Assembly (NCBI GenBank): GCA_965216315.1
Contig: CBDCFN010000001.1
Location: 1-12,282 of the forward strand
DNA from: a bacterium
GTDB taxonomy: Bacteria; UBA10199; 2-02-FULL-50-16; JAJFLM01
Length of the DNA: 12,282 bases
Reading direction: 5' to 3'
Under the pieces are notes generated by a model. That model was not told where the DNA came from. It was given only the letters and a program-made list of their open reading frames with translations, and ran no database searches. The stretch's first letter is position 1; each line of letters opens with the position of its first letter. Positions 1-12,282 of the stretch are shown here, piece after piece. The position numbers were made by a program, and so were the translations under genes.

Positions 1-738
1 AATCAATCTGTCTGCTAGGCGACCAACAGGGTTTTTTTTCGTATCGAGAGCCCAAAGAATCGAATAGATCTTTATCTGTTCTTGGTGATCTTTACGTTCC
101 TCCCCCGATTTGTAGTCAATTATTTCACATCCATCATCGTCGATGTTTATCAGGTCGGCCTTTCCCCTCCAAGATATTTGATCAGCAGTAATCCAAGCCT
201 CAGGGAAGCTTCCTCGAGAATAACACGTCTGAGATACATCATCGCTTTGAGTACGCTGCCTAGCTTGGGGAACAAGCTTTATGTCTTTCAATAACTGCTG
301 AACGCTTCGCCTGATATGACCTTGTCTAGCAGTGATTTTAGACTGCAAGTTCTTAACATCTTCAATAATTCTGGGATTGTCTGCTACTTGCTTTAAGTTC
401 GATGCGATGGTATCCGTGATAATTCTGCTGAAACCACTCAGTTGACGAATTACTCCGACCGCCGCTTCCGTTTCCAACGATATACATCCAGCTGCGGTAA
501 GATTATTAGTAACTATTTCAGCAGCTTCATGAATTATATTCCCAACTAAAGCATCCTCAGCTAGAGGCCTCGGATAACCCCTTTTATTCCATAGATCTTC
601 ATAATTGCTCTCCTGAAGCCACCATCTCCTAGGGCATGTCGCAATTTGCTTGTACGTAGAATAAGTCATGAAATCAGGCTTAGCAGGAGACGAAACCGGA
701 TTTCTTACTCGCCAGAAATCAGATGCCTGGGCGATCAT
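1..738 (-). CDS. PD-(D/E)XK nuclease, RecB/AddB/Cas4-like (3'-partial, runs off window; not in ORF track)
   Basis: Manual translation from the ATG at 738-736 (overlaps the druE TAA as TAATG) gives 246 open codons to position 1: MIAQASDFW...MTYSTYKQIATCPRRWWL (CPRRWW 636-619)...LVGNIIHEA (GNIIH 543-529)...FPEAWI...WRGKADLI (GKAD 165-154)...EIIDYKSG (DYK 117-109)...DHQEQIKIYSILW (QxxxY 78-64). Motif order and spacing match RecB/Cas4-family nucleases. Confidence 0.85.
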   Translation of the reverse strand, partial: MIAQASDFWRVRNPVSSPAKPDFMTYSTYKQIATCPRRWWLQESNYEDLWNKRGYPRPLAEDALVGNIIHEAAEIVTNNLTAAGCISLETEAAVGVIRQLSGFSRIITDTIASNLKQVADNPRIIEDVKNLQSKITARQGHIRRSVQQLLKDIKLVPQARQRTQSDDVSQTCYSRGSFPEAWITADQISWRGKADLINIDDDGCEIIDYKSGEERKDHQEQIKIYSILWALDTKKNPVGRLADRLI

Positions 739-3020
739 TAACTGATTGCTCTCATTATTTCGGTCGTGACTGAAGGAAGATGACGCGTCACAGTTATCTC
801 ATTGGCTGGAAAAACTTGAATGGTACCAGAATTGTCTAGTACGTCCTGAAGCTGTGGATCATTAAGTCGCTGAGGCGTGAGCGGATGGCTTACCGCAACT
901 ATAAGTTGTGTATTATCATGTGTTGATATTAGAATTGGGGCTCTTACTACTCCGATACCTGCAATATCAACAGTCTCGTTCCTGTGTAGTTCAACGCCAG
1001 AGAGACCTTGTCTTTGTAAATCGTTGTAAAGTCTATTTGTGGACAAATCTGTTCGCGTACTTTGAAGATTTGGTTCTCTGGCATTTATCAAATAATTTAA
1101 TAAATCTGCACCAAGCTGACGATCTAAACGATCATGCTCAAATTTGTTTTTGTAACTTCTGAGGCAGCGATAGCAAGATCTGTCACAGTGATCCGAACAG
1201 TTTTCCAGTATCCTGAGCGCACGGTTAAATAATTCAAGCCCGAACTCCCCGAGATGCGGAGAAAAGCCTGCGCCACCTGGCAATGTGTCGTAGAGATAGA
1301 TTTCAGCTTCTAGGCCGGTGCTTCCGGCCTCAGTTAAAGCGGGCCTGAATTCCGCCTGAATCTCCCCAGATTCAAGCGCCAACAACTGTGTACCTGCTAA
1401 AGTTAATGCTTCACATAAAGTGCGAAGAGCAGTTTCCGTACTGAGGAGACCGGGTCTCAATGTAATAGGAACATTAACTTGCAAGCTGATCAATAAAATA
1501 TCGGATGGAAAATCTGTTCCCAATACTATGGCTCGGGCAGTTCTCCCACCTGGGCAATCGGGTTCGCGATTATCTGGAAATGGTTTCCTATGACTTTGAG
1601 TTGTAGTGCCACGAAGAATTGCCGACGGTTCAATCGCTCCGCAGACAGTACAATAATTGTATCCCTCGTTAAGCGTACCTCTATTTGTTACCAGAAGATG
1701 TTCTCTTGTTCTGTATAATCTAATGCGTTCATTTATACGTTCCCATTCGCTTTCTGCTCCGGCCTCAGTCGTGAGCTTAGCACGAGTTGCATAGCTTCGT
1801 GCAGGTTGATCCTCTGGAGCTGTGACTGGCTGTATGTTGGAGGGATGTGCAAAACCTGGGGGGCGCAACCACCACGTTGCCGGCCCAAATGTGCCAGCCG
1901 ATCTACAGGCAGGACAATCCCTTACTTCATCTTTTTCGGCTTCCGAGGCAGGATGAGTCGAAGCAAACTGGCATTCTGAACATTCAAAGTAGAGCCTACG
2001 AGATTCCCATGCGCGCTGTCGTTCACTATAAATAGGCGTATATAGTGCTCCAGATTGCCACAATCGACCGTCTATCCACACATGTTTGCCGGGTGCATAC
2101 TGTGTTAAAGCTATGCTCAAGCCCTGCGAGGGAGTATAAAGAAACGCCTGGCGATAGCGTGTAAAATTGGCATCATCAAAAATGTAGAATGTCGTAACAT
2201 CTGTAGGAAAGGCATATCGTGGAAGGACACCCTTGTATAAGAGCCTATCCAAGAGATTCTCGGCTTCTGCGCGGCCGATATTTGTTGTTGTATCACCTGC
2301 TTCTGAAGGTACTTCCAGTGGCTCAAGAGCATCATCATTACTATCCTGTCCGTCTTCAAGATTAGGATCATACATAATAGCATCGTCAATGGGACGCAGG
2401 GTCTCTTCAATCAACTGATCTAAAAGTATTTGCCTTTGCGCTTGGTGTAAGTCATCCGGTAACCAATCATCGACATCATTTCTAAGGTGGGAGATATTTT
2501 CTCTAAGCCATTCCCCAAAATCATCTCTAGTCAGCACAGATGTACTACCGCGGAATGCCGCAACGCTTCCAAGAACGGAAAAGAGATTGTGGGGCTGGTC
2601 TTCTGGAGAGATGTGCGGTAATCGTGCCTGATGATATCTTTGAAGAAGATATGCCGTAACATGCCTTCTCGTTATATCGCAGTTATCTAAAGTAAGAATA
2701 GGGTCATCAACTTTGCCTCTAATCATTTGGTCTGGTTCACGGAAATAATGCTCATCATGACTATCGGAGCTCGCGAATCCGATCACGGTTGCTACAGTGG
2801 ACGACCTTCTACCTGCGCGGCCTGCTCTTTGTTGATAGTTTGCCCTCCCGGGAGGCATATTTCGCAGCGCCACACCGGATAACGCACCAATGTCTATTCC
2901 AACCTCCATTGTTGTTGTGCATGACAAGACATCGATAGCCATCCGATCGGGACCGTCGATTGTGTCACCCAGATCTACATCTTGAAACAGCAGTTCATAC
3001 TCCTCTGCTTTCGAGAACAC
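738..3020 (-). CDS. druE: C-terminal segment of DruE-like helicase (motifs V-VI, Zn ribbons, DUF1998); frame is open to 3269
   Basis: TTTMEVGIDIG (motif V), YQQRAGRAGRR (motif VI), GVLPRYAFP, ALTQYAPG, CSEC..CPAC, CTVC, and YDTLPGGAG...C...CDRSCYRCL (DUF1998 / MrfA-Hrq1-type Zn site). Confidence 0.75.
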   Translation of the reverse strand: MFSKAEEYELLFQDVDLGDTIDGPDRMAIDVLSCTTTMEVGIDIGALSGVALRNMPPGRANYQQRAGRAGRRSSTVATVIGFASSDSHDEHYFREPDQMIRGKVDDPILTLDNCDITRRHVTAYLLQRYHQARLPHISPEDQPHNLFSVLGSVAAFRGSTSVLTRDDFGEWLRENISHLRNDVDDWLPDDLHQAQRQILLDQLIEETLRPIDDAIMYDPNLEDGQDSNDDALEPLEVPSEAGDTTTNIGRAEAENLLDRLLYKGVLPRYAFPTDVTTFYIFDDANFTRYRQAFLYTPSQGLSIALTQYAPGKHVWIDGRLWQSGALYTPIYSERQRAWESRRLYFECSECQFASTHPASEAEKDEVRDCPACRSAGTFGPATWWLRPPGFAHPSNIQPVTAPEDQPARSYATRAKLTTEAGAESEWERINERIRLYRTREHLLVTNRGTLNEGYNYCTVCGAIEPSAILRGTTTQSHRKPFPDNREPDCPGGRTARAIVLGTDFPSDILLISLQVNVPITLRPGLLSTETALRTLCEALTLAGTQLLALESGEIQAEFRPALTEAGSTGLEAEIYLYDTLPGGAGFSPHLGEFGLELFNRALRILENCSDHCDRSCYRCLRSYKNKFEHDRLDRQLGADLLNYLINAREPNLQSTRTDLSTNRLYNDLQRQGLSGVELHRNETVDIAGIGVVRAPILISTHDNTQLIVAVSHPLTPQRLNDPQLQDVLDNSGTIQVFPANEITVTRHLPSVTTEIMRAIS

Positions 3021-3162
3021 ATCAGCAGACTGCGCCGCATTTAATTGTGCTGTATGCTCAGCTGCGATAATTGATAGCGGTGGAATATCATCTTCGAGAA
3101 GAGCCCTTGAGGTTTTACGGTAGTATTCCTTTCGAGCAGAAAAGACTGGATCAGTATTAGGA

Positions 3163-6100
3163 TCAATAATGTCGACTGCATCTTGACCACAATGTACACA
3201 GATGCGGTGTCCAGGGAATGGACGTTGGGTAGTGCGGCATGTCTGGCAATAGCCCCAGAGGTCCCTCCATTAGGAGGGTCACGCTACCACCACTTAGCCT
3301 GTAACCACCACCTCCTGTTTGAGTGCAAAAATGAGATAATAAAGCTGGCAACCAACGTTCTCTAAATGATCGTTTTAGCGTTGAAGTAGTTAGAAAATTA
3401 CGTTCAAATCTTCCGAACTTTCCCGTATTGTGTGTACTGATATATCTATTGGAACGATCTGTCGTATTTTCTCTCCAATCATCAGGACAAAGGCTTAGCC
3501 AGATTCGCTCCGGCTTTTGCCAATATCGAATCCAGTTTCGTAACAGTGCGAGTTTCTGTTCTTCAGACTCCGCTAATCCCGGGAGATCCGGTAATTCAAT
3601 AATCAAATCTTGAGATAAGTCTAATCGCTCACAGATTGATGCAAGCCCCAACGCTTCTAGTCCATAATATCTTGCGAAGATAATATCGTAAATGCCGTTC
3701 AATAGTGAGACCGGTGGCCGAGCCGTACGTAGAAATCTGTCGACAAATCGACCAAATTCTCGAGGGTTATTGAGTAAACCTGCATTTAACCTGTCAGTAA
3801 GCTGAGTTTCGTGACCTAAATCATCACTTTGTCGTATTTCCGGTCGGAGCCTTACGCCATACTCGTGAGCCGCTAATAAAACTGCAAAATAGGAATGGTC
3901 GAGAGTAAGGACCTCACTCATATCATCAAATCGATACATCCTGGCAAAGCCAGCTAGCAATAAGGGTCTGAGAGCATCCTTCATTGAGAGAGATTTTAAG
4001 TTTGGTGCCAATCTTGCTGCTGTCTGGCGCGAATCTGAAAACACCAGTGATTTGCGTCCGCGAAGTGGTGCGAATGGCGTTGCTAGATGCGGTCCCGGAG
4101 GTTGGACAGCAATTTGCTTTGAAACTAACGCTTGAAAGGGCTGATCGCCACTCGTCTGGTGATCTTGTACAGACGAACGTCCGTAGCCAGCTTGCTCGTC
4201 GCAGACGGCGCATGGCGAGAATTGTCCTGGCTCAGAATTACTTATTTGGTTGCGTCCATCAGCAACCCTATTTGGCTGGAGAAATACTTGTCTTACACGT
4301 TCGCCCAGTTGGTTTGGACTTCCCTGACCCGTAACAACATCAAAATCAAGCGGTTCTGGCTGGTTGTCGAGTGTCTCTGCAGGAGCCTCGAGTAGCAGGT
4401 CTATTGGCGATAATTCCCTCAAATCACCCTGTTCAGTTCGTATACGATTACCTTTCTCAGACCATAGATAACGAGGAGACTCGACATCGTCGGTATACGC
4501 ACGCGCATAAGCTGTACCACAATTACGACATGTGAACAGTTCATACACTCTCGCCCCACAGCTACAAATATCACGCGGCTGACTATATGGTCTGCCAGTT
4601 GGTCCGCCCCTATCAGTTTCAGAAATTGCTGTGCATTGAGGGTCCAAACAAGCCCAAAGCCCTGCAAGGCCACGGAATAAACAGTGTATTCTGCATGGTA
4701 GGAGACCCGGTAAATCTGGCTCTCTTCTAGCTATACTTCCGAATGCTAGAAGAGTAGTTACCGCCTTATCTCTCACCTCAGGATCAACTTCTGGAAATAT
4801 GAGTCCCCCAAGCGAATCAAGACGAATTGCAGATTGCATTGAAAGATTAATCAGTTGATTGAGAGGCTCGAATTCCCTTAAGGCTTCATACAATGCTAGA
4901 TGTAGAGGTAGATCAGGAGATACTCCACGCATAGTCAGAAATGATTGGATCACGTTGCTTCTTTGATCATCACTAGCATTATAAAATGACTGCAAATCAA
5001 TATTGCCTAATAGTTCAGCTTCTGCAGCACTCCCAGGCCTTGCATTATTTCTTAGGTCGAGTGTTCCTGTTATCGACGTAAAACCAGATGACGTCTTACC
5101 AGATAAGCGAGCGGCAAACTGCGCTGCGTAATCATGATCTGCAAAACTTGCACTGGTGCAAATCACCTGAATTCGGTCTTCTGGAACCGCTAATCTTGAT
5201 CTAAGTCTGCGCAATAACAGCGCAACCTCGGCACCCGCGGCACCGCGATAAAGATGCGCTTCATCAATGACTATAAGAAACCGTTCATTAGGATTCTCTC
5301 TAAGCCAAGCGCTAGTGCGATCGAATATCGGACGCTCAATTGGACGCATTAGCATGTATTCAAGCATCGAGTAGTTAGTCAGTAAGATGTCTGGCGGCGC
5401 TTCTAACACTTCGTGTCGGGTCAATAGTTCCACGTCCTCCGGTAACGTTACACATCTTGCAAATCGCCCATTTCTATCAGTCCATCTTTGATTTGGGCGC
5501 CCGTACCACCTCTCCAGGTCAGGTTTAGCAGGCCATTTTCCTCGCCGCTTCAGTTCTGCTATCAAGCGGGCGGAGGCTCCTCGTTGGGGATCATCAGGAT
5601 CTCTCGCTTTTCTTAAGTGGTCCACATAGTATCGTCCGATGGGCGCAAGTCTTTGTTGGTCTTTCTGTCTAGTGCGAATGCCAGGGTACAGGGTCCGACT
5701 TGTATATCTTGCGAAGCGAATAGGTCTTCCGCACCACTTATTAAATAGTGTTGTAATTCTGGGGTCACCAAAAAGAAGTCGTAAACGGCCAAGTTGGTCG
5801 TTTACCAGTGCATTCATTGGATAAAGAATGATGCAGCGGACGGCGTTGAATTCAGCGAACTGACTGCGCTTTTCAGCTGCTTCCATGGCGAGTTTACCTA
5901 GGATCGGCAATAAGAAACATTCAGTTTTTCCAGACCCTGTTCCAGTCATTACAACGGTATCTCTGCCGCATGCTAATGTATCTTTGATAGCTTCCGCTTG
6001 GTGTTGATATGGTGGATCGTGAATTAGGCACGAACCACCGTCTATACCACTTACTGCAGCGAAAGCTTCCAATGCAGCCTCATGCAGGCCTAATGATCGA

Positions 6101-6285
6101 AACATGTCTCCAGTTACGTATTTCGGCGTGCTTTCAATATATGGAACCTGGTAAATATTTCCCGCTTCTGACAACAGTCGCTGTCTTTCACGGACAAGGA
6201 ATGGGTGACTTATGTGGTATGTCGCTTCTATGTAATCCCGCAATTCATCTTGAAGGTGTGAAATTGTTTGGCCAATGGTATTCAT
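3163..6285 (-). CDS. druE: N-terminal segment of DruE-like SF2 DEAH helicase (last ~30 residues out of frame)
   Basis: PPYQHQ (Q motif), TGTGSGKTE (Walker A, 5946-5920), YPMNALVNDQ (Ia), TNYSMLEYML, DEAH (5265-5254), TSAS (III), Cys clusters CLDPQC/CSC/CRNC/CAVC, FSDSRQTAA (IV). Confidence 0.8.
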   Translation of the reverse strand: MNTIGQTISHLQDELRDYIEATYHISHPFLVRERQRLLSEAGNIYQVPYIESTPKYVTGDMFRSLGLHEAALEAFAAVSGIDGGSCLIHDPPYQHQAEAIKDTLACGRDTVVMTGTGSGKTECFLLPILGKLAMEAAEKRSQFAEFNAVRCIILYPMNALVNDQLGRLRLLFGDPRITTLFNKWCGRPIRFARYTSRTLYPGIRTRQKDQQRLAPIGRYYVDHLRKARDPDDPQRGASARLIAELKRRGKWPAKPDLERWYGRPNQRWTDRNGRFARCVTLPEDVELLTRHEVLEAPPDILLTNYSMLEYMLMRPIERPIFDRTSAWLRENPNERFLIVIDEAHLYRGAAGAEVALLLRRLRSRLAVPEDRIQVICTSASFADHDYAAQFAARLSGKTSSGFTSITGTLDLRNNARPGSAAEAELLGNIDLQSFYNASDDQRSNVIQSFLTMRGVSPDLPLHLALYEALREFEPLNQLINLSMQSAIRLDSLGGLIFPEVDPEVRDKAVTTLLAFGSIARREPDLPGLLPCRIHCLFRGLAGLWACLDPQCTAISETDRGGPTGRPYSQPRDICSCGARVYELFTCRNCGTAYARAYTDDVESPRYLWSEKGNRIRTEQGDLRELSPIDLLLEAPAETLDNQPEPLDFDVVTGQGSPNQLGERVRQVFLQPNRVADGRNQISNSEPGQFSPCAVCDEQAGYGRSSVQDHQTSGDQPFQALVSKQIAVQPPGPHLATPFAPLRGRKSLVFSDSRQTAARLAPNLKSLSMKDALRPLLLAGFARMYRFDDMSEVLTLDHSYFAVLLAAHEYGVRLRPEIRQSDDLGHETQLTDRLNAGLLNNPREFGRFVDRFLRTARPPVSLLNGIYDIIFARYYGLEALGLASICERLDLSQDLIIELPDLPGLAESEEQKLALLRNWIRYWQKPERIWLSLCPDDWRENTTDRSNRYISTHNTGKFGRFERNFLTTSTLKRSFRERWLPALLSHFCTQTGGGGYRLSGGSVTLLMEGPLGLLPDMPHYPTSIPWTPHLCTLWSRCSRHY

Positions 6286-6299
6286 AATATATTTCTAAT

Positions 6300-7376
6300 T
6301 TATGCCATCTGCTTTAACCAGAGGTTAGTTTGGCAGAATTTCACTTCACTTTGACAGTATTGACTTTTAAATCTGTACGCAAATAGGGAGTCCTTTGACT
6401 TAATTGGCTGGCCAATTGAATCCCACTTGCGGAGAACCCATCTAGGAACAGGCGAATAAAAATCGAATATGAATTGCTCATGATCTGTCTTGCTTACCCG
6501 GAACAACTGTGGTGATCCGTTAATAGCATCAAGCGCCATTTGAATGTACCATGCATCGTCGCATCCGCGTCCATTTGATCTTTCCAGCGGTAAATTTAGT
6601 GCTCGAGTGAGCTTTCCATTCTTGATTTCCAAATAACTCCAAAGGGCATTCCCGTACTTTCTTGGACGGCGAGCTATGAATCTGCCCACTGATTTGTGTA
6701 TAGGGCTCCATCGCTGCTTATAGAATCTCGGGTTTTCAGTTGGCTTCATTATCAGGACGTCTTCTTTAAGATCGACTTCTTGTGTCTGATCTAATTCTCT
6801 ATCAATTGCTTGAATGAATTTATGGGCAGTAATTTGTTTGGATGTAGAGAGCCAATATGGAGGGCAGAGCCAGTATTCTAGCGAGAATTCCATGAGACCC
6901 GATTTATTCAATATCGTAAGATCATCACCCGAGATACTATCTATTCGTCTTACATGTCTCCTATATGTTATTCGTGACTCCAAGTCACTAGGCAGAGGTG
7001 AAAAGTAGTCCGGTACGATCCCTAGCAATAGAAGTGCTCCTGGCTCGAGTTTTACAAATGCTGGAGGTCCTGCGTAGAGCAGCTTCCGCATTTGCCCTTC
7101 GTCAACAGAAGTAAGTTCCAATAAATCTCCATAAGATGTCATATCGTTGATAATGTCTGGGATTGACTGAATATACTCATCATCTACCAAGCCTCTAAGT
7201 AGTGAGCCAACCTGCGCAGTCAGCGTACTAGCTGAACAAGGACAAATAAAGCCTGCGACCTTCCTTACTGTTGCCGCAATGGCTTCAGGTGATGAAAGGT
7301 TCAATGCCTGTGAATTCAAACGAAGATTCGCAATGACAATTCTCTTAGCTTCATTGTATTCCAAAACTCTCATCAC
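6300..7376 (-). CDS. Druantia accessory protein, DruD-like by position and size (start GTG 7376 or ATG 7373)
   Basis: 358-codon ORF starting 1 nt after the upstream stop and ending 14 nt before druE. No recognisable catalytic motif; the DruD assignment rests on gene order only. Confidence 0.65.
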   Translation of the reverse strand: MMRVLEYNEAKRIVIANLRLNSQALNLSSPEAIAATVRKVAGFICPCSASTLTAQVGSLLRGLVDDEYIQSIPDIINDMTSYGDLLELTSVDEGQMRKLLYAGPPAFVKLEPGALLLLGIVPDYFSPLPSDLESRITYRRHVRRIDSISGDDLTILNKSGLMEFSLEYWLCPPYWLSTSKQITAHKFIQAIDRELDQTQEVDLKEDVLIMKPTENPRFYKQRWSPIHKSVGRFIARRPRKYGNALWSYLEIKNGKLTRALNLPLERSNGRGCDDAWYIQMALDAINGSPQLFRVSKTDHEQFIFDFYSPVPRWVLRKWDSIGQPIKSKDSLFAYRFKSQYCQSEVKFCQTNLWLKQMA

Positions 7377-7377
7377 A

Positions 7378-10269
7378 TTACCATCTCCATGAGGAATAAA
7401 GAGCGCCTAGTTCCTTGCCTGCTTGAGATCCAAGCCTCTCTTCTACGGATAGAACAAAGTATCTTGCCAGTAACGGAAGTACTGGATATCGCTCCAATGC
7501 TGTTATGCCACCTACGAGCTTCTCGTCGGCCCACGCAGATACGGTACCGGGATCGGATGCAACTCTAAGGCACAATTCAGAAAACCATGTTATTGATTCA
7601 AAAGGTGAAGACTTCTGAAACATACGGTGTTTTTCCAGAGCGTACTCAAACCATGATTTCCTTTGAAAGGTGGCAAGTGGCGAGACCTGATCTAGTTCAG
7701 TGAATATGAAATGTGCAATACTACCGAATTTCCAGTAATCTGAGAGTTCGATTAACATTCTTTTGAGTGCAACACGTTCAGGACGATTTGCATATTGACA
7801 CTCCATGTCCAGCCATTCCGCTCCCCCGAAGATTGCAAACAATCTCTGTAGCATATTTAACACCACGGAACGCTTGATTAGGACTGCTTTCAAGTCGTCG
7901 AGTGTCTTCGCATTTGCCCAAAGGTCCAGAAGTCGCATTGCACTTATTGTTTGACCGGATTGCCAAACATCGCTTTTCAACTGCGGTGTAAATCTCAGTT
8001 CTTTCAATGATAGCAGTCTAGCAGAAGGGCTTACGATAAAAGAGGTTTCATCACCATTTGCTCTTGCATGAAAAAGAACTGTGCGCTTTGTTACCTTCAT
8101 TCCTTCTACTGCTTTTTCATAGTCCAGGTCTACGGATATATCTGGAAATTCGGAGGTGAAATAGCATGTATCTTGTTTCTTAAGAGAATCGGTGTCGTCA
8201 ATTAGCATTGCAATATTTGATTTACCTTTTCTCTGTACGCTCCACCGTAGTGCAGATACTTGTCTCTCAGCACTAATGGATGCATCACCAAGTTCACCAC
8301 CGCGGATAACCACTCTACATGAATGAGCAGGATCGGTTTCGCCGCGCTTCCATTTCCTTCGAACGTGCTGAACAAACAGCTCTCTCCAATCGTCTATAGT
8401 CACAGGCAGAGTAGAGTCGATTGGAGCGCTTTCGAGAACTAGAATGCCACGCCGATCAAAAAATGAAATGATGAAGGTAATTCTTGAAGCGACAGGTCCC
8501 TGAACGGCTATATCGACATCACCATTCCAAATATCTTCATAACTCGGCTGTATAGGATCTGTAAGAACCATTAAAGGATTACATGGGCTCGATCCCATAG
8601 ACCAGTCCTGTGGCTCTCGTATATTAATGCTTATTTCGGCTGTAACAGAATTATATTCTGGTGTGCTTGAGTGCGTTAAAAGTTTTAGAGTATAGCTTCC
8701 CGTGTATAAGCGGGGAAGTTCAATGAAATGCGTATATGCAGAAGCGATGGGCACTGTCAGCTCCTGTTTCGCAAAGCCCTCAAGAGCAATAGAAATGCTC
8801 TCTATTTCCTTATTAGCGCGCACCGCTATTATAGGACGGTCAGTTGACAACCACTCTATATAACCCTCACCGTCCCATTGCGAGGGCGATACTCCCGCCG
8901 GCCAAACGTCCAGATATGTAATTTCTTTCAATCCAAGACGCTGAGCGTCATTTTGTGTAAATGGTGAAATGCCGGAATCGGAGACGTCAAACAATATGTT
9001 GGATACACCTGGGGAGGCCAATTTAATTGTCGTTCCATTAATATCGGGGAGACGTTGATCTTTACTAATTAATATATAGCTGCTTCCAGGGCGCAGAGTT
9101 CCCCCTCTTATGTATGCCGCAGTTCCATCGGAACGTAGCTTGAATAGCCAGGTATTCCCGCGGCTTCTGATTGTTATATTCTCAAACAGCTCTCGCAATT
9201 CATTGTCATGACAGTCGATTGGTTCTAGCATTGGTACATTTGACTCAGGCCATTCGCTAAGTCTGACTTCGCGGCGATAGAGAAAGTGTCCTCGGGAAAA
9301 AGGACTGCTTGATTTCGCTCCACGCACTTGACATCTTACGTTCTGGAATAGTCGCTTTAATTCGGGATCAGAAGATAGGAGAGCGCCAAATTCTGGCATT
9401 ATCGCGTACAGACTGTACTCTCCCTCGTCATTAGGTCGCAGTTGAAGCTGAGGTGACATATTGCCATACTTAATTGCAGATCGTTTTCTTTGACTGCGCT
9501 TATTATCTCGCCTTCCTTTTGTTACTCCATGAGTGATTAACTGCCGGGTTTGACGACGGATCTCTCTCAACCATTCTCTGGACGCTCGCTCGCGCCCTAA
9601 ATCACTTACAATTCGCCTGAGAGTGCGTTCAGAAATTAGTTCCCTGTTCTCACCTAATTGTTCGGCTAAGAGTGCAGAGCTGAACTGCCAGACTAAAGCA
9701 CGATTATTGAGAAAGTTGGCAAATCGGTCAGTGAGATGAAGTGATCTGGCCTCAATCGTCGCGGCCAAAAGTTCCGGATCTTCAAAATGCTCATCTCGAA
9801 GTAACGGTCGCAATCTATACAACGATTCTAGAAACTGTCGTTGTAAATCCAGAGGTAGTATCGCGTTCGTAATCGGCCATGCGATGATTCGGAAATGCAT
9901 TGCCCACGCGCCCGAAGGACTTATTCCCCTATAGGTTTGTTTGAATCTTTCAAAGGCATCGCTAATCCATTTTCTGTTTCCGCACATTTTCCAGGCGGGC
10001 AGTCTTTCTTCGAAGGTTTGCCAGTATTCATATCCCGAAAACTCGTAGCCAATTTCAGCAGCAACAACGGCACATGGTAGCCAATATTCGCTTATGTCCG
10101 TATCTTGCTGAAATGCTTGATTAACTGAAGTGAATAGATTTGTTAACTCCGTGTCATCCAATTGATGCTCTAGAGCAAACACATATGCGTGATCACCCAT
10201 GCGCTCGCGTTTAGTCCGAATTGCCGAGAACGCACCTGATAGGCGATCTTGCCATTCATGGATTCTCAT
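7378..10269 (-). CDS. Large Druantia accessory protein (963 aa) in the druB/druC position; possible fusion
   Basis: Uninterrupted ORF whose ATG overlaps the druA stop (TAATG, 10271-10267). N-terminus is Trp/Tyr-rich and helical-looking (VFALEH..YWLP..AAEIGY..EYWQTF..IIAWPITNAILPLDLQ), followed by a basic linker, a beta-strand-like middle and a helical C-terminus. Gene existence is secure; product identity is inferred from synteny. Confidence 0.65.
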   Translation of the reverse strand: MRIHEWQDRLSGAFSAIRTKRERMGDHAYVFALEHQLDDTELTNLFTSVNQAFQQDTDISEYWLPCAVVAAEIGYEFSGYEYWQTFEERLPAWKMCGNRKWISDAFERFKQTYRGISPSGAWAMHFRIIAWPITNAILPLDLQRQFLESLYRLRPLLRDEHFEDPELLAATIEARSLHLTDRFANFLNNRALVWQFSSALLAEQLGENRELISERTLRRIVSDLGRERASREWLREIRRQTRQLITHGVTKGRRDNKRSQRKRSAIKYGNMSPQLQLRPNDEGEYSLYAIMPEFGALLSSDPELKRLFQNVRCQVRGAKSSSPFSRGHFLYRREVRLSEWPESNVPMLEPIDCHDNELRELFENITIRSRGNTWLFKLRSDGTAAYIRGGTLRPGSSYILISKDQRLPDINGTTIKLASPGVSNILFDVSDSGISPFTQNDAQRLGLKEITYLDVWPAGVSPSQWDGEGYIEWLSTDRPIIAVRANKEIESISIALEGFAKQELTVPIASAYTHFIELPRLYTGSYTLKLLTHSSTPEYNSVTAEISINIREPQDWSMGSSPCNPLMVLTDPIQPSYEDIWNGDVDIAVQGPVASRITFIISFFDRRGILVLESAPIDSTLPVTIDDWRELFVQHVRRKWKRGETDPAHSCRVVIRGGELGDASISAERQVSALRWSVQRKGKSNIAMLIDDTDSLKKQDTCYFTSEFPDISVDLDYEKAVEGMKVTKRTVLFHARANGDETSFIVSPSARLLSLKELRFTPQLKSDVWQSGQTISAMRLLDLWANAKTLDDLKAVLIKRSVVLNMLQRLFAIFGGAEWLDMECQYANRPERVALKRMLIELSDYWKFGSIAHFIFTELDQVSPLATFQRKSWFEYALEKHRMFQKSSPFESITWFSELCLRVASDPGTVSAWADEKLVGGITALERYPVLPLLARYFVLSVEERLGSQAGKELGALYSSWRW

Positions 10270-11603
10270 TAAATTCTCAATGTCTCCAAGTGTGATTCGC
10301 TATTGGGTAATCGCTTGATGTTCTCAATAAGTAGTTTTTGAAATTCTCGTGTGAGACCTTGATGTGATTTCTTTAACTCTCGCTTTATTCCAGATTGTCT
10401 AGGTATATTAAGTGAAATGTGATGAGAGTGCTTTCTAGATAACAGCTTTGCTAGATCTGTTTTCTTCCAATACAAATATTGCGGACGTCTTTCAGCACGG
10501 GGTATGAGCCATCTCTGTAAAGCCGCGGCTCCGACTTCACTCACTGATTTAAGTGATCTGTACCGCGGAATGGTCGATTTACCGGTGAGAAGACTACTAT
10601 AGTTCTCAATAAACTTACAGGCATATACCTCTCTAAAAACACCATGTCGAAGTACATCACCATTTAACCCCATAGATTCTAATGCAGCTCTCGTAACGCG
10701 AAGCTTCCAATTTGATCCACTGCCATATTCATGTCCATCCGCATAAGGATGATCAATAGCTGTAAGGTATGTCCGCAGGTCATTGAATAAACTGTTGGGG
10801 ATATGGAAATGACCCCATCCCTCAGTAAAGCCAATTGGTTCAAAGTATTTAATCCCATCTAATTGCAATCGATTGTAAACAGAGGATCTCCCCAGAGCAG
10901 AGGATGTTGTGACTAAAGAGAGCGATGCGTTCTTATGCTTCCGTGAAATTATTCCCTTTCTATTTCCATACTTGACGCGGAAGGCTCTCCGAACTTCTTT
11001 TGTCCTAATGAGACAAGCAATCATCTTCCCGCATAGCAGGAAATTGTATGGTGGTATTGCACCAACCACGTATGCATCCATGCAATTAACAAGTCGTTTC
11101 TTCCGGTCATGCGAGGACCATCCGATGTATTCATCTCGGACTCTTGAATTAAATACGGGATCACCTAATGCGAAAAGTCCTATGAGTTTTCCATTAAAGT
11201 CATCCCACACTAAGAATCGAATGCGGCGACCGTATCCACGTGAGACTGGAACGCTCCATGTAAGGCTTGCGAGCCTAAATAGGTCTGACTGCCATGTGTT
11301 GGACTCGATAAGTTCCAATCTGGGAGATACTTTTTGAGGAATGACTTCAACACCAGAGGCAAAATATTGAATGAGTTCGTCATATCTTGAGCGAATAAAT
11401 GGCATTTCATTTTTCAGGAGGTCACTTTTTTGTTTTCGATGTAACTTCCTAATGATTTTCTTTTTATCACTAGGTGGTGATATGTACCCCTGCTTATTCT
11501 TATCAAATCCTAAAGCTGAAAGATGTGTAGAGAGCTTCTTTTTTATCCTCGCTTGTACGCCATTAAGATGTGACTTATTCGCGCGTGTATTTCGTGAATT
11601 CAT
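10269..11603 (-). CDS. druA: Druantia protein DruA (DUF4338 family)
   Basis: Recognised blocks WSVPVSRGYGRRIRFLVWD, GKLIGLFALGDPVF..RDEYIGW, MDAYVVGAIPPYNFLLCGK, TTSSALGRSSVYNRL, IGFTEGWGHFH, GSNWKLR. First gene of an operon that ends in a DUF1998 helicase. Confidence 0.85.
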   Translation of the reverse strand: MNSRNTRANKSHLNGVQARIKKKLSTHLSALGFDKNKQGYISPPSDKKKIIRKLHRKQKSDLLKNEMPFIRSRYDELIQYFASGVEVIPQKVSPRLELIESNTWQSDLFRLASLTWSVPVSRGYGRRIRFLVWDDFNGKLIGLFALGDPVFNSRVRDEYIGWSSHDRKKRLVNCMDAYVVGAIPPYNFLLCGKMIACLIRTKEVRRAFRVKYGNRKGIISRKHKNASLSLVTTSSALGRSSVYNRLQLDGIKYFEPIGFTEGWGHFHIPNSLFNDLRTYLTAIDHPYADGHEYGSGSNWKLRVTRAALESMGLNGDVLRHGVFREVYACKFIENYSSLLTGKSTIPRYRSLKSVSEVGAAALQRWLIPRAERRPQYLYWKKTDLAKLLSRKHSHHISLNIPRQSGIKRELKKSHQGLTREFQKLLIENIKRLPNSESHLETLRI

Positions 11604-11900: not shown

Positions 11901-12172
11901 GCGAGATCAAGCTGTTACGCCATACAAGATAGCTGACTGATTTCATCGCCTATGGCGAGAAGTTATCCAATACCTCCCACCCACCCCATAATTTACAGCC
12001 CCGGACTGAACATCTGTCATAAGCGGGGGCTAAGGACGGTCCAGTCCTTGTCATATCGTTTGCGACGCCCTGTGGATATCTTCTACTGAGGGCAGGACAC
12101 AGAGTGATTTCCGCCACGACCACGCGGCGGCCCGCGCAAAGGGAGTGCAAGTGGGGTGCACGGACCGTGACA

Positions 12173-12204
12173 GCACGCCCCCGGCGGGCTGGCGCGGGAC
12201 GTGC
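12173..12204 (-). terminator. GC-rich stem-loop just after the upstream gene's stop (no U-tract; terminator role uncertain)
   Basis: Minus strand GCACGTCCC...GGGGCGTGC forms a 9-bp stem with one G.U pair, starting about 10 nt after the TGA at 12216-12214. Confidence 0.25.
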
Positions 12205-12213
12205 CACTCGGGA

Positions 12214-12282
12214 TCAAGCGGAGGGAGGGTTGAGAGTTTCAAGAAACTCCGTGATCGCGTCGATTTCCCGCGCAATCGCAGT
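12214..12282 (-). CDS. Probable C-terminal end of an upstream gene (5'-partial), product unknown
   Basis: Open from the right edge: TAIAREIDAITEFLETLNPPSA*, an amphipathic-helix-like sequence with many G/C-ending codons. Only 22 codons are visible. Confidence 0.4.
   Translation of the reverse strand, partial: TAIAREIDAITEFLETLNPPSA

Follow-up and report, generated by a model that had tools for sequence, protein, structure and literature searches.

The window, meaning the whole stretch of 12,282 nucleotides that we analyzed, is the entire contig C1 and carries on its minus strand druA, a gene for a large protein X, druD, druE, and the start of a nuclease gene (Table 1). The druE product is a YprA-like SF2 helicase of the type I clade with an MZB/DUF1998 region and a dead Vsr-like C-terminal domain. 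It is read as two ORFs (3163-6285 and 738-3020) owing to one extra base near position 3260. Since a public contig (a single one, at depth 2.8) does not contain this base, it is likely an assembly error.

Table 1. Features of the druantia-like operon in the window
Feature	Position	Strand	Basis
5' 246 codons of a ~415-aa 4-Cys PD-(D/E)XK nuclease gene	1..738	minus	frame, Pfam, homologues
TAATG, overlap of druE stop and nuclease start	736..740	minus	1 base in common: the final A of the druE TAA opens the ATG
druE	738..6285	minus	PADLOC DruE1 1043 + 764 bits (two ORFs); Pfam
druD	6300..7376	minus	PADLOC DruD1 309 bits
Uncatalogued 963-aa protein X, in place of DruB + DruC	7378..10269	minus	position; profile negatives; model
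druA, short form (DUF4338)	10269..11603	minus	PADLOC DruA1 590 bits, Pfam DruA 297 bits

An earlier note on this DNA had claimed that an unlisted frame overlapping the druE stop codon encodes a nuclease of the RecB/AddB/Cas4 type, and our analysis agrees on both points. The minus-strand frame, running from 738 to 1, is stop-free over 246 codons, and none of 10,000 base shuffles of 1-738 kept it open. An ORF listing misses it only if open-ended ORFs are left out. The TAATG junction and every motif named in the note were found (C35-PRRWW, G66-x3-H70, E180, G192-KA-D195, I206-IDYKSG, and Q221-x3-Y225), with the catalytic motifs intact, and the frame scores 47.3 bits on Pfam PDDEXK_1 (cut-off 22). 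From the one-base overlap, we infer translational coupling of druE and the nuclease gene.

Because contig C1 ends with the window, the nuclease gene is cut by the assembly and not by a stop codon. A pseudogene was ruled out because the motifs are intact and the frame is open up to the contig end. About 170 codons lie beyond this end, including three cysteines and a likely OB-fold tail. They are on no other contig of the same genome; no overlap extending C1 was found in that genome, and no public contig from three public runs continues past its end. Contig C1 has a GC content of 45%, and its tetranucleotide profile correlates with that of the main contig at 0.395, where the median is 0.925 and 2 of 195 windows fall lower; it is either an acquired island or a mis-binned contig. 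At its other extremity, the region 11950-12282 reaches a GC content of 53%, and positions 12000-12135 have a match in a diverged public contig. This region may be where a repeat or mobile element ends, and no second copy was found in the genome.

DruA1, DruD1, and DruE1 were all identified in the window by PADLOC models, and the gene order is like that of Druantia type I (druABCDE). The operon differs from type I by a protein of about 970 aa for DruB and DruC, by a separate DruE branch, and by the extra nuclease gene. A PADLOC type I call requires all five genes, and DruB and DruC are missing here. Judged from its sequence, the operon is an uncatalogued type I-like Druantia variant that falls outside this five-gene rule, and such operons are therefore likely under-counted. 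By tblastn, E. coli DruB, DruC, and DruD gave no match in 159 loci.

The protein of about 970 aa is present in 61 of the 65 genome loci with 9 kb upstream. The 963-aa copy of the window has no PADLOC, Pfam, or NCBIfam match, and ten homologues likewise have none in PADLOC. We considered a fusion of DruB and DruC and rejected it, since no significant match was obtained with either profile (0.2% probability each; three-sequence templates). The N-terminal part of DruB aligned with the protein weakly and without significance. Modeling and fold search predict helical ends and central tandem Ig-like beta-sandwiches, an arrangement reminiscent of how DruH has been described. A GHKL-like ATPase, so labelled from our reading of its sequence, accompanies a long DruA in many relatives (family F4, found in 21 of 79 loci), among them L041. 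The position of this pair, a DruA of ~680 aa and a GHKL/MORC-like ATPase of ~500 aa, shifts between loci: upstream, divergent, or convergent behind the nuclease (L037 13532-17151, L055 13577-17190, L208 13441-16796).

We then characterized the nuclease family. A word-index protein search with the window protein gave zero matches, which reflects a limit of sensitivity, because a full HMMER search of 1.84 billion representatives returned 758 relatives at E <= 0.001, 213 of them at 1e-30. The best 150 are mostly 400-420 aa long and 30-40% identical. In the numbering of the homologue from locus L041, residues C35, G66, H70, E186, D201, K216, Q227, and Y231 are invariant in all 150 aligned rows. 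In the same alignment, C302 and C305 are each found in 148 of 148 non-gap rows and C311 in 148 of 149. The earlier note had predicted that the cysteine of CPRRW would be joined by three more beyond the window, and a C-terminal Cx2Cx5C is indeed present in all 82 full-length druE-linked copies. Of this four-cysteine layout, the N-terminal C35 lies within the window, and the other three, past the contig end here, are seen in homologues. As C302, C305, and C311 fall outside the part used as query, they confirm the prediction independently. The four conserved cysteines are predicted to hold a 4Fe-4S cluster, and the gene likely encodes an active Fe-S single-strand DNA nuclease. It is under purifying selection, with a median dN/dS of 0.19, next to 0.07 for the DruE C-terminus (75 of 78 pairs, 13 sequences, one clade).

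The AlphaFold2 model of the L041 homologue (pLDDT 93.8) ranks Dna2, AdnA, and ACE1 at the top in Foldseek. In a wide fold search with residues about 20-320, the matches were AdnA (Z 14.0, rmsd 3.6, 224 aligned), ACE1 (Z 12.8, rmsd 3.5, 230 aligned), AddB (Z 11.7, rmsd 5.2, 264 aligned), and Dna2 (Z 10.5, rmsd 4.0, 232 aligned). Residues 306-409 resemble the OB folds of RPA and Teb1 (Z 6.4-6.6, rmsd ~3, ~80 aligned). As Z ~6.5 falls under the tool's sure-match level, we take the modeled C-terminal OB-fold tail as a lead rather than proof. Cas4 SSO0001 is the sole solved structure reached by sequence profile, and the ESM Atlas gave only generic PDDEXK_1 clusters for the family.

AdnA, AddB, Dna2, and Cas4 SSO0001, the top fold or profile matches, share with the family one N-terminal and three C-terminal cysteines. 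However, they are repair motors or CRISPR adaptation proteins, and the family has no helicase domain: in AddB and AdnA the nuclease is fused to a UvrD-like helicase in a subunit of ~1000 aa, whereas family members are ~415 aa long. ACE1 is likewise a stand-alone Cas4-family nuclease with an AdnA/AddB-like fold. PMC12094033 describes it as an accessory nuclease boosting an Argonaute defence system that is able to work alone. It differs from the family in this Argonaute partner and in its ~266-aa chain, and gave no match across the family's C-terminal tail. We rejected an identity as CRISPR-associated Cas4: the 246-aa fragment scores 20.6 bits on NCBIfam cas4, below the cut-off of 65, and the fixed neighbours are dru genes. 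No cas genes were found in the window.

Nuclease-bearing loci span 13 named phyla (57 loci). The family was not found in the 92 other genomes of the host's class that were searched (62 near complete), and tblastn with a full homologue against 72,556 plasmids gave zero matches.

The earlier note had also suggested testing how often homologues directly follow druE, and a tight linkage was seen from both sides, in counts that include some near-duplicate loci. Among 79 druE-anchored loci, 7 with less than 1.3 kb downstream were set aside; a nuclease homologue lies downstream of druE in 55 of the remaining 72, and in 54 it starts at most 100 nt from the stop. These 55 copies comprise 51 full-length and 4 short or truncated ones. 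Conversely, starting from the best 80 of 109 metagenome matches to the nuclease, and setting aside 17 with less than 300 nt upstream, druE adjoins the nuclease upstream in 62 of 63 loci. Both nuclease loci from a viral collection (2/2) have an adjacent druE. Spacing between the two genes ranges from -14 to +28 nt in 82 dereplicated homologous pairs. The sole copy without druE upstream (L110, 1658-2857) is preceded by an ORF that by eye looks integrase-like, and in L137 (725-2239), counted as a remnant among the 62, a deletion joins the druE start to the nuclease. As part of our best overall explanation, which includes an optional-booster role, the nuclease is probably the conserved last member of a druA-X-druD-druE operon.

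To the earlier note, the nuclease was a dedicated effector of DruE. Its link to druE and its nuclease motifs agree with this, but repeated losses of the gene next to an intact druE point to a likely accessory role. It is missing in 17 of the 72 druE loci, one of which keeps a remnant and 16 of which encode a DruE of at least 1830 aa. In a FastTree phylogeny, the losses fall in several separate branches of the DruE tree, including a supported clade of 7 loci, and the deepest members of the DruE clade carry the nuclease. DruE in nuclease-less loci has a dN/dS of 0.09-0.14 (7 of 8 pairs; one saturated). Because the gene is lost repeatedly while druE remains intact and under purifying selection, sequence comparison suggests that the nuclease is likely accessory rather than an essential effector. 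The canonical druABCDE loci of E. coli (L160), P. putida (L163), and R. solanacearum (L166) lie on a separate DruE branch, and no such nuclease gene was seen in these three loci (with an HMM check on L160 only). In a sister DruE clade, a NERD nuclease-helicase lies directly behind druE (L162 14280-16010, L167 14144-15865).

If the nuclease were instead an essential and stably bound subunit of DruE, in the style of AddAB or AdnAB, the loci without it would be decaying or borrowing a host nuclease. Near-fixed adjacency and coupling are consistent with such a subunit, as is the AdnA nuclease domain as top fold match. Moreover, DruE and nuclease tree distances correlate (Pearson 0.89, 82 dereplicated pairs), and 22 of 31 supported DruE splits recur in the nuclease tree. 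However, co-divergence is expected from co-transfer alone and thus does not demonstrate binding, and 7 of the 31 splits conflict. No fused DruE-nuclease or longer nuclease form was found among 8000 longer candidates scored, which is weak evidence, and the clade of 7 loci has kept an intact and conserved DruE. We consider an essential subunit improbable and retain the accessory role.

Whether PADLOC already lists the gene as a known component was raised in the earlier note, and in part it does: a similar nuclease, DruK, is listed for the same position, but sequence scores do not place our family inside it. PADLOC-DB v2 holds three DruK models (PDLC00058-60). In locus L202, a true DruK (421 bits) lies directly behind the type II pair DruF2-DruE2, with the same four cysteines and a tail of ~89 aa. 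DruK thus resembles our family in its place immediately after druE, in being a 4-Cys PD-(D/E)XK nuclease, and in its beta-rich tail of ~90-100 aa. It differs in its partners (DruF and DruE2, against DruE1, DruD, and DruA) and in length, the family being ~45 aa longer. Of 11 full-length homologues, 9 have a DruK model as their best PADLOC match, at a weak 32-45 bits, and PADLOC might therefore annotate such proteins as DruK. Overall, the family scores 15-45 bits on the DruK models against 421 for the true member, and its maximum of 45 bits is below the 48-57 bits of unlinked RecB-type actinobacterial proteins (n = 23; no druE within 1.5 kb). At strict thresholds, DruK was found in 0 of 93 and 0 of 400 genomes, and one true DruK was found among 401 actinobacterial genomes. 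One DruK homologue of 549 aa (P0185) carries an MZB domain (PF09369) on the same chain and is a possible DruE-DruK fusion or frameshift artefact.

The family may thus be read as a fourth, diverged DruK subfamily, an ancestral druE-druK pair having survived in types II/IV and in the type I-like clade but not in canonical type I. The position behind druE and the layout are alike, with Cx2Cx5C followed by a tail of ~89 aa in DruK or 104 aa in the family. A profile-profile match reaches 98.7% over 263 columns, and the 32-45 bits of the homologues lie between the scores that the true L202 DruK reaches on the two remaining DruK models (59.7 and 23.2 bits). On the other hand, cross-HMM medians between family and DruK (31 and 24 bits) are not above those of 21 unlinked actinobacterial RecB-type proteins (37 and 34 bits), and the C-terminal tails do not align (probability 0.6%); the ESM Atlas gave nothing informative on the DruK tail. 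A quick tree search yielded three long-stemmed groups with an undecided branching order, in a comparison that covers one DruK subfamily (PDLC00060-like) from one locus. We give common descent with DruK just short of an even chance; it would leave the mechanism unchanged and lower only the novelty. In either case, the family corresponds to DruK in position and architecture, and its novelty is limited by DruK, which anticipates the concept.

The mechanism that we favour, and hold to be rather probable, is that the last gene of the operon encodes an active Fe-S single-strand DNA nuclease that would cut DNA unwound by DruE, as an optional booster and not as a core part. It builds on the intact catalytic motifs, the four conserved cysteines, the fixed place behind druE, and the purifying selection observed above. 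Its further elements are predictions: a nuclease fold like that of AdnA, ACE1, AddB, and Dna2, a 4Fe-4S cluster, and an OB-fold tail holding single-stranded DNA. According to three 2026 preprints, the loading sites of type III DruE are single-strand/duplex junctions, and its unwinding runs 3'-to-5'. By transfer from type III, DruE of this operon would load at such junctions in phage DNA and unwind it in the same direction. Bell et al. (PMC12458937) state that a nuclease, either fused or encoded downstream, usually accompanies YprA-family helicases and that type I and II DruE end in an inactivated Vsr domain. In our alignment of 68 DruE C-termini, no PD-(D/E)xK residues were seen by eye, with or without a nuclease gene. 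Since DruE of this clade has a dead Vsr-like domain only, the downstream nuclease may do the cutting that type III DruE may do through its fused PLD domain. Two 2026 preprints present the type III nuclease (PLD) domains as dispensable, and cutting of DNA may therefore not be at the centre of Druantia defence; two others report nuclease activity of DruE. The five-gene E. coli system defends as cloned (10.1101/2024.04.14.589459). Anti-phage activity and host m6A marking are reported for the E. coli type I system only. As suggested by gene loss, our operon would still function without the nuclease, perhaps more weakly. Where the nuclease is present, the displaced strand would be threaded through its Fe-S-stapled core, with the OB tail assisting, and then cut.

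Dna2, AdnA, and AddB, which the family matches in fold, are resection nucleases, and the protein might accordingly prime or modulate the system, either by resecting ends into an overhang for DruE loading or by clearing stalled intermediates on the host chromosome. Parallels are found in DruH, reported as an exonuclease making the overhang for DruE (10.64898/2026.05.13.724313), and in ACE1, which trims guides (PMC12094033). However, in PMC12458937 the nuclease that occupies this place in other YprA-family systems, fused or downstream, is regarded as the effector. We regard a priming or modulating role as unlikely, and continue to prefer the cutting of DruE-unwound DNA.

In openly available full texts, no report of Druantia with DruK or a RecB-like nuclease was found, and a search for Druantia with Cas4 gave only one match, which looks unrelated. 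The term "DruK" is absent from the supplement of the PADLOC paper, and in the text of its Fig. S4 (Payne 2021), a "Cas4 / exonuclease" node appears near the Druantia nodes. Within a comparison that covered PADLOC-DB and openly available full texts, this is apparently an undescribed, conserved nuclease family of an uncatalogued type I-like Druantia variant. A bolder interpretation, which we put forward tentatively and find rather doubtful, is that of a widespread undescribed subtype (druA, Ig-repeat protein X, druD, druE, Fe-S nuclease-OB, and often a GHKL ATPase with a long DruA) whose DruE, itself nuclease-dead, recruits a Dna2/AdnA-like nuclease that was acquired independently. If true, the slot behind druE would be a swappable effector socket, holding, according to clade, this nuclease, DruK, a NERD nuclease-helicase, or a fused PLD domain. 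It would also make it possible to test directly if Druantia defence works through cutting or through unwinding only. The 2026 preprints on type III are at odds over the need for DNA cutting, and in type I the DruE protein lacks an active nuclease domain. The clade provides natural plus/minus pairs of closely related operons, one having the separate nuclease gene and the other not, and some hosts are in culture, for example Halotalea alkalilenta DSM 17697 (L041).
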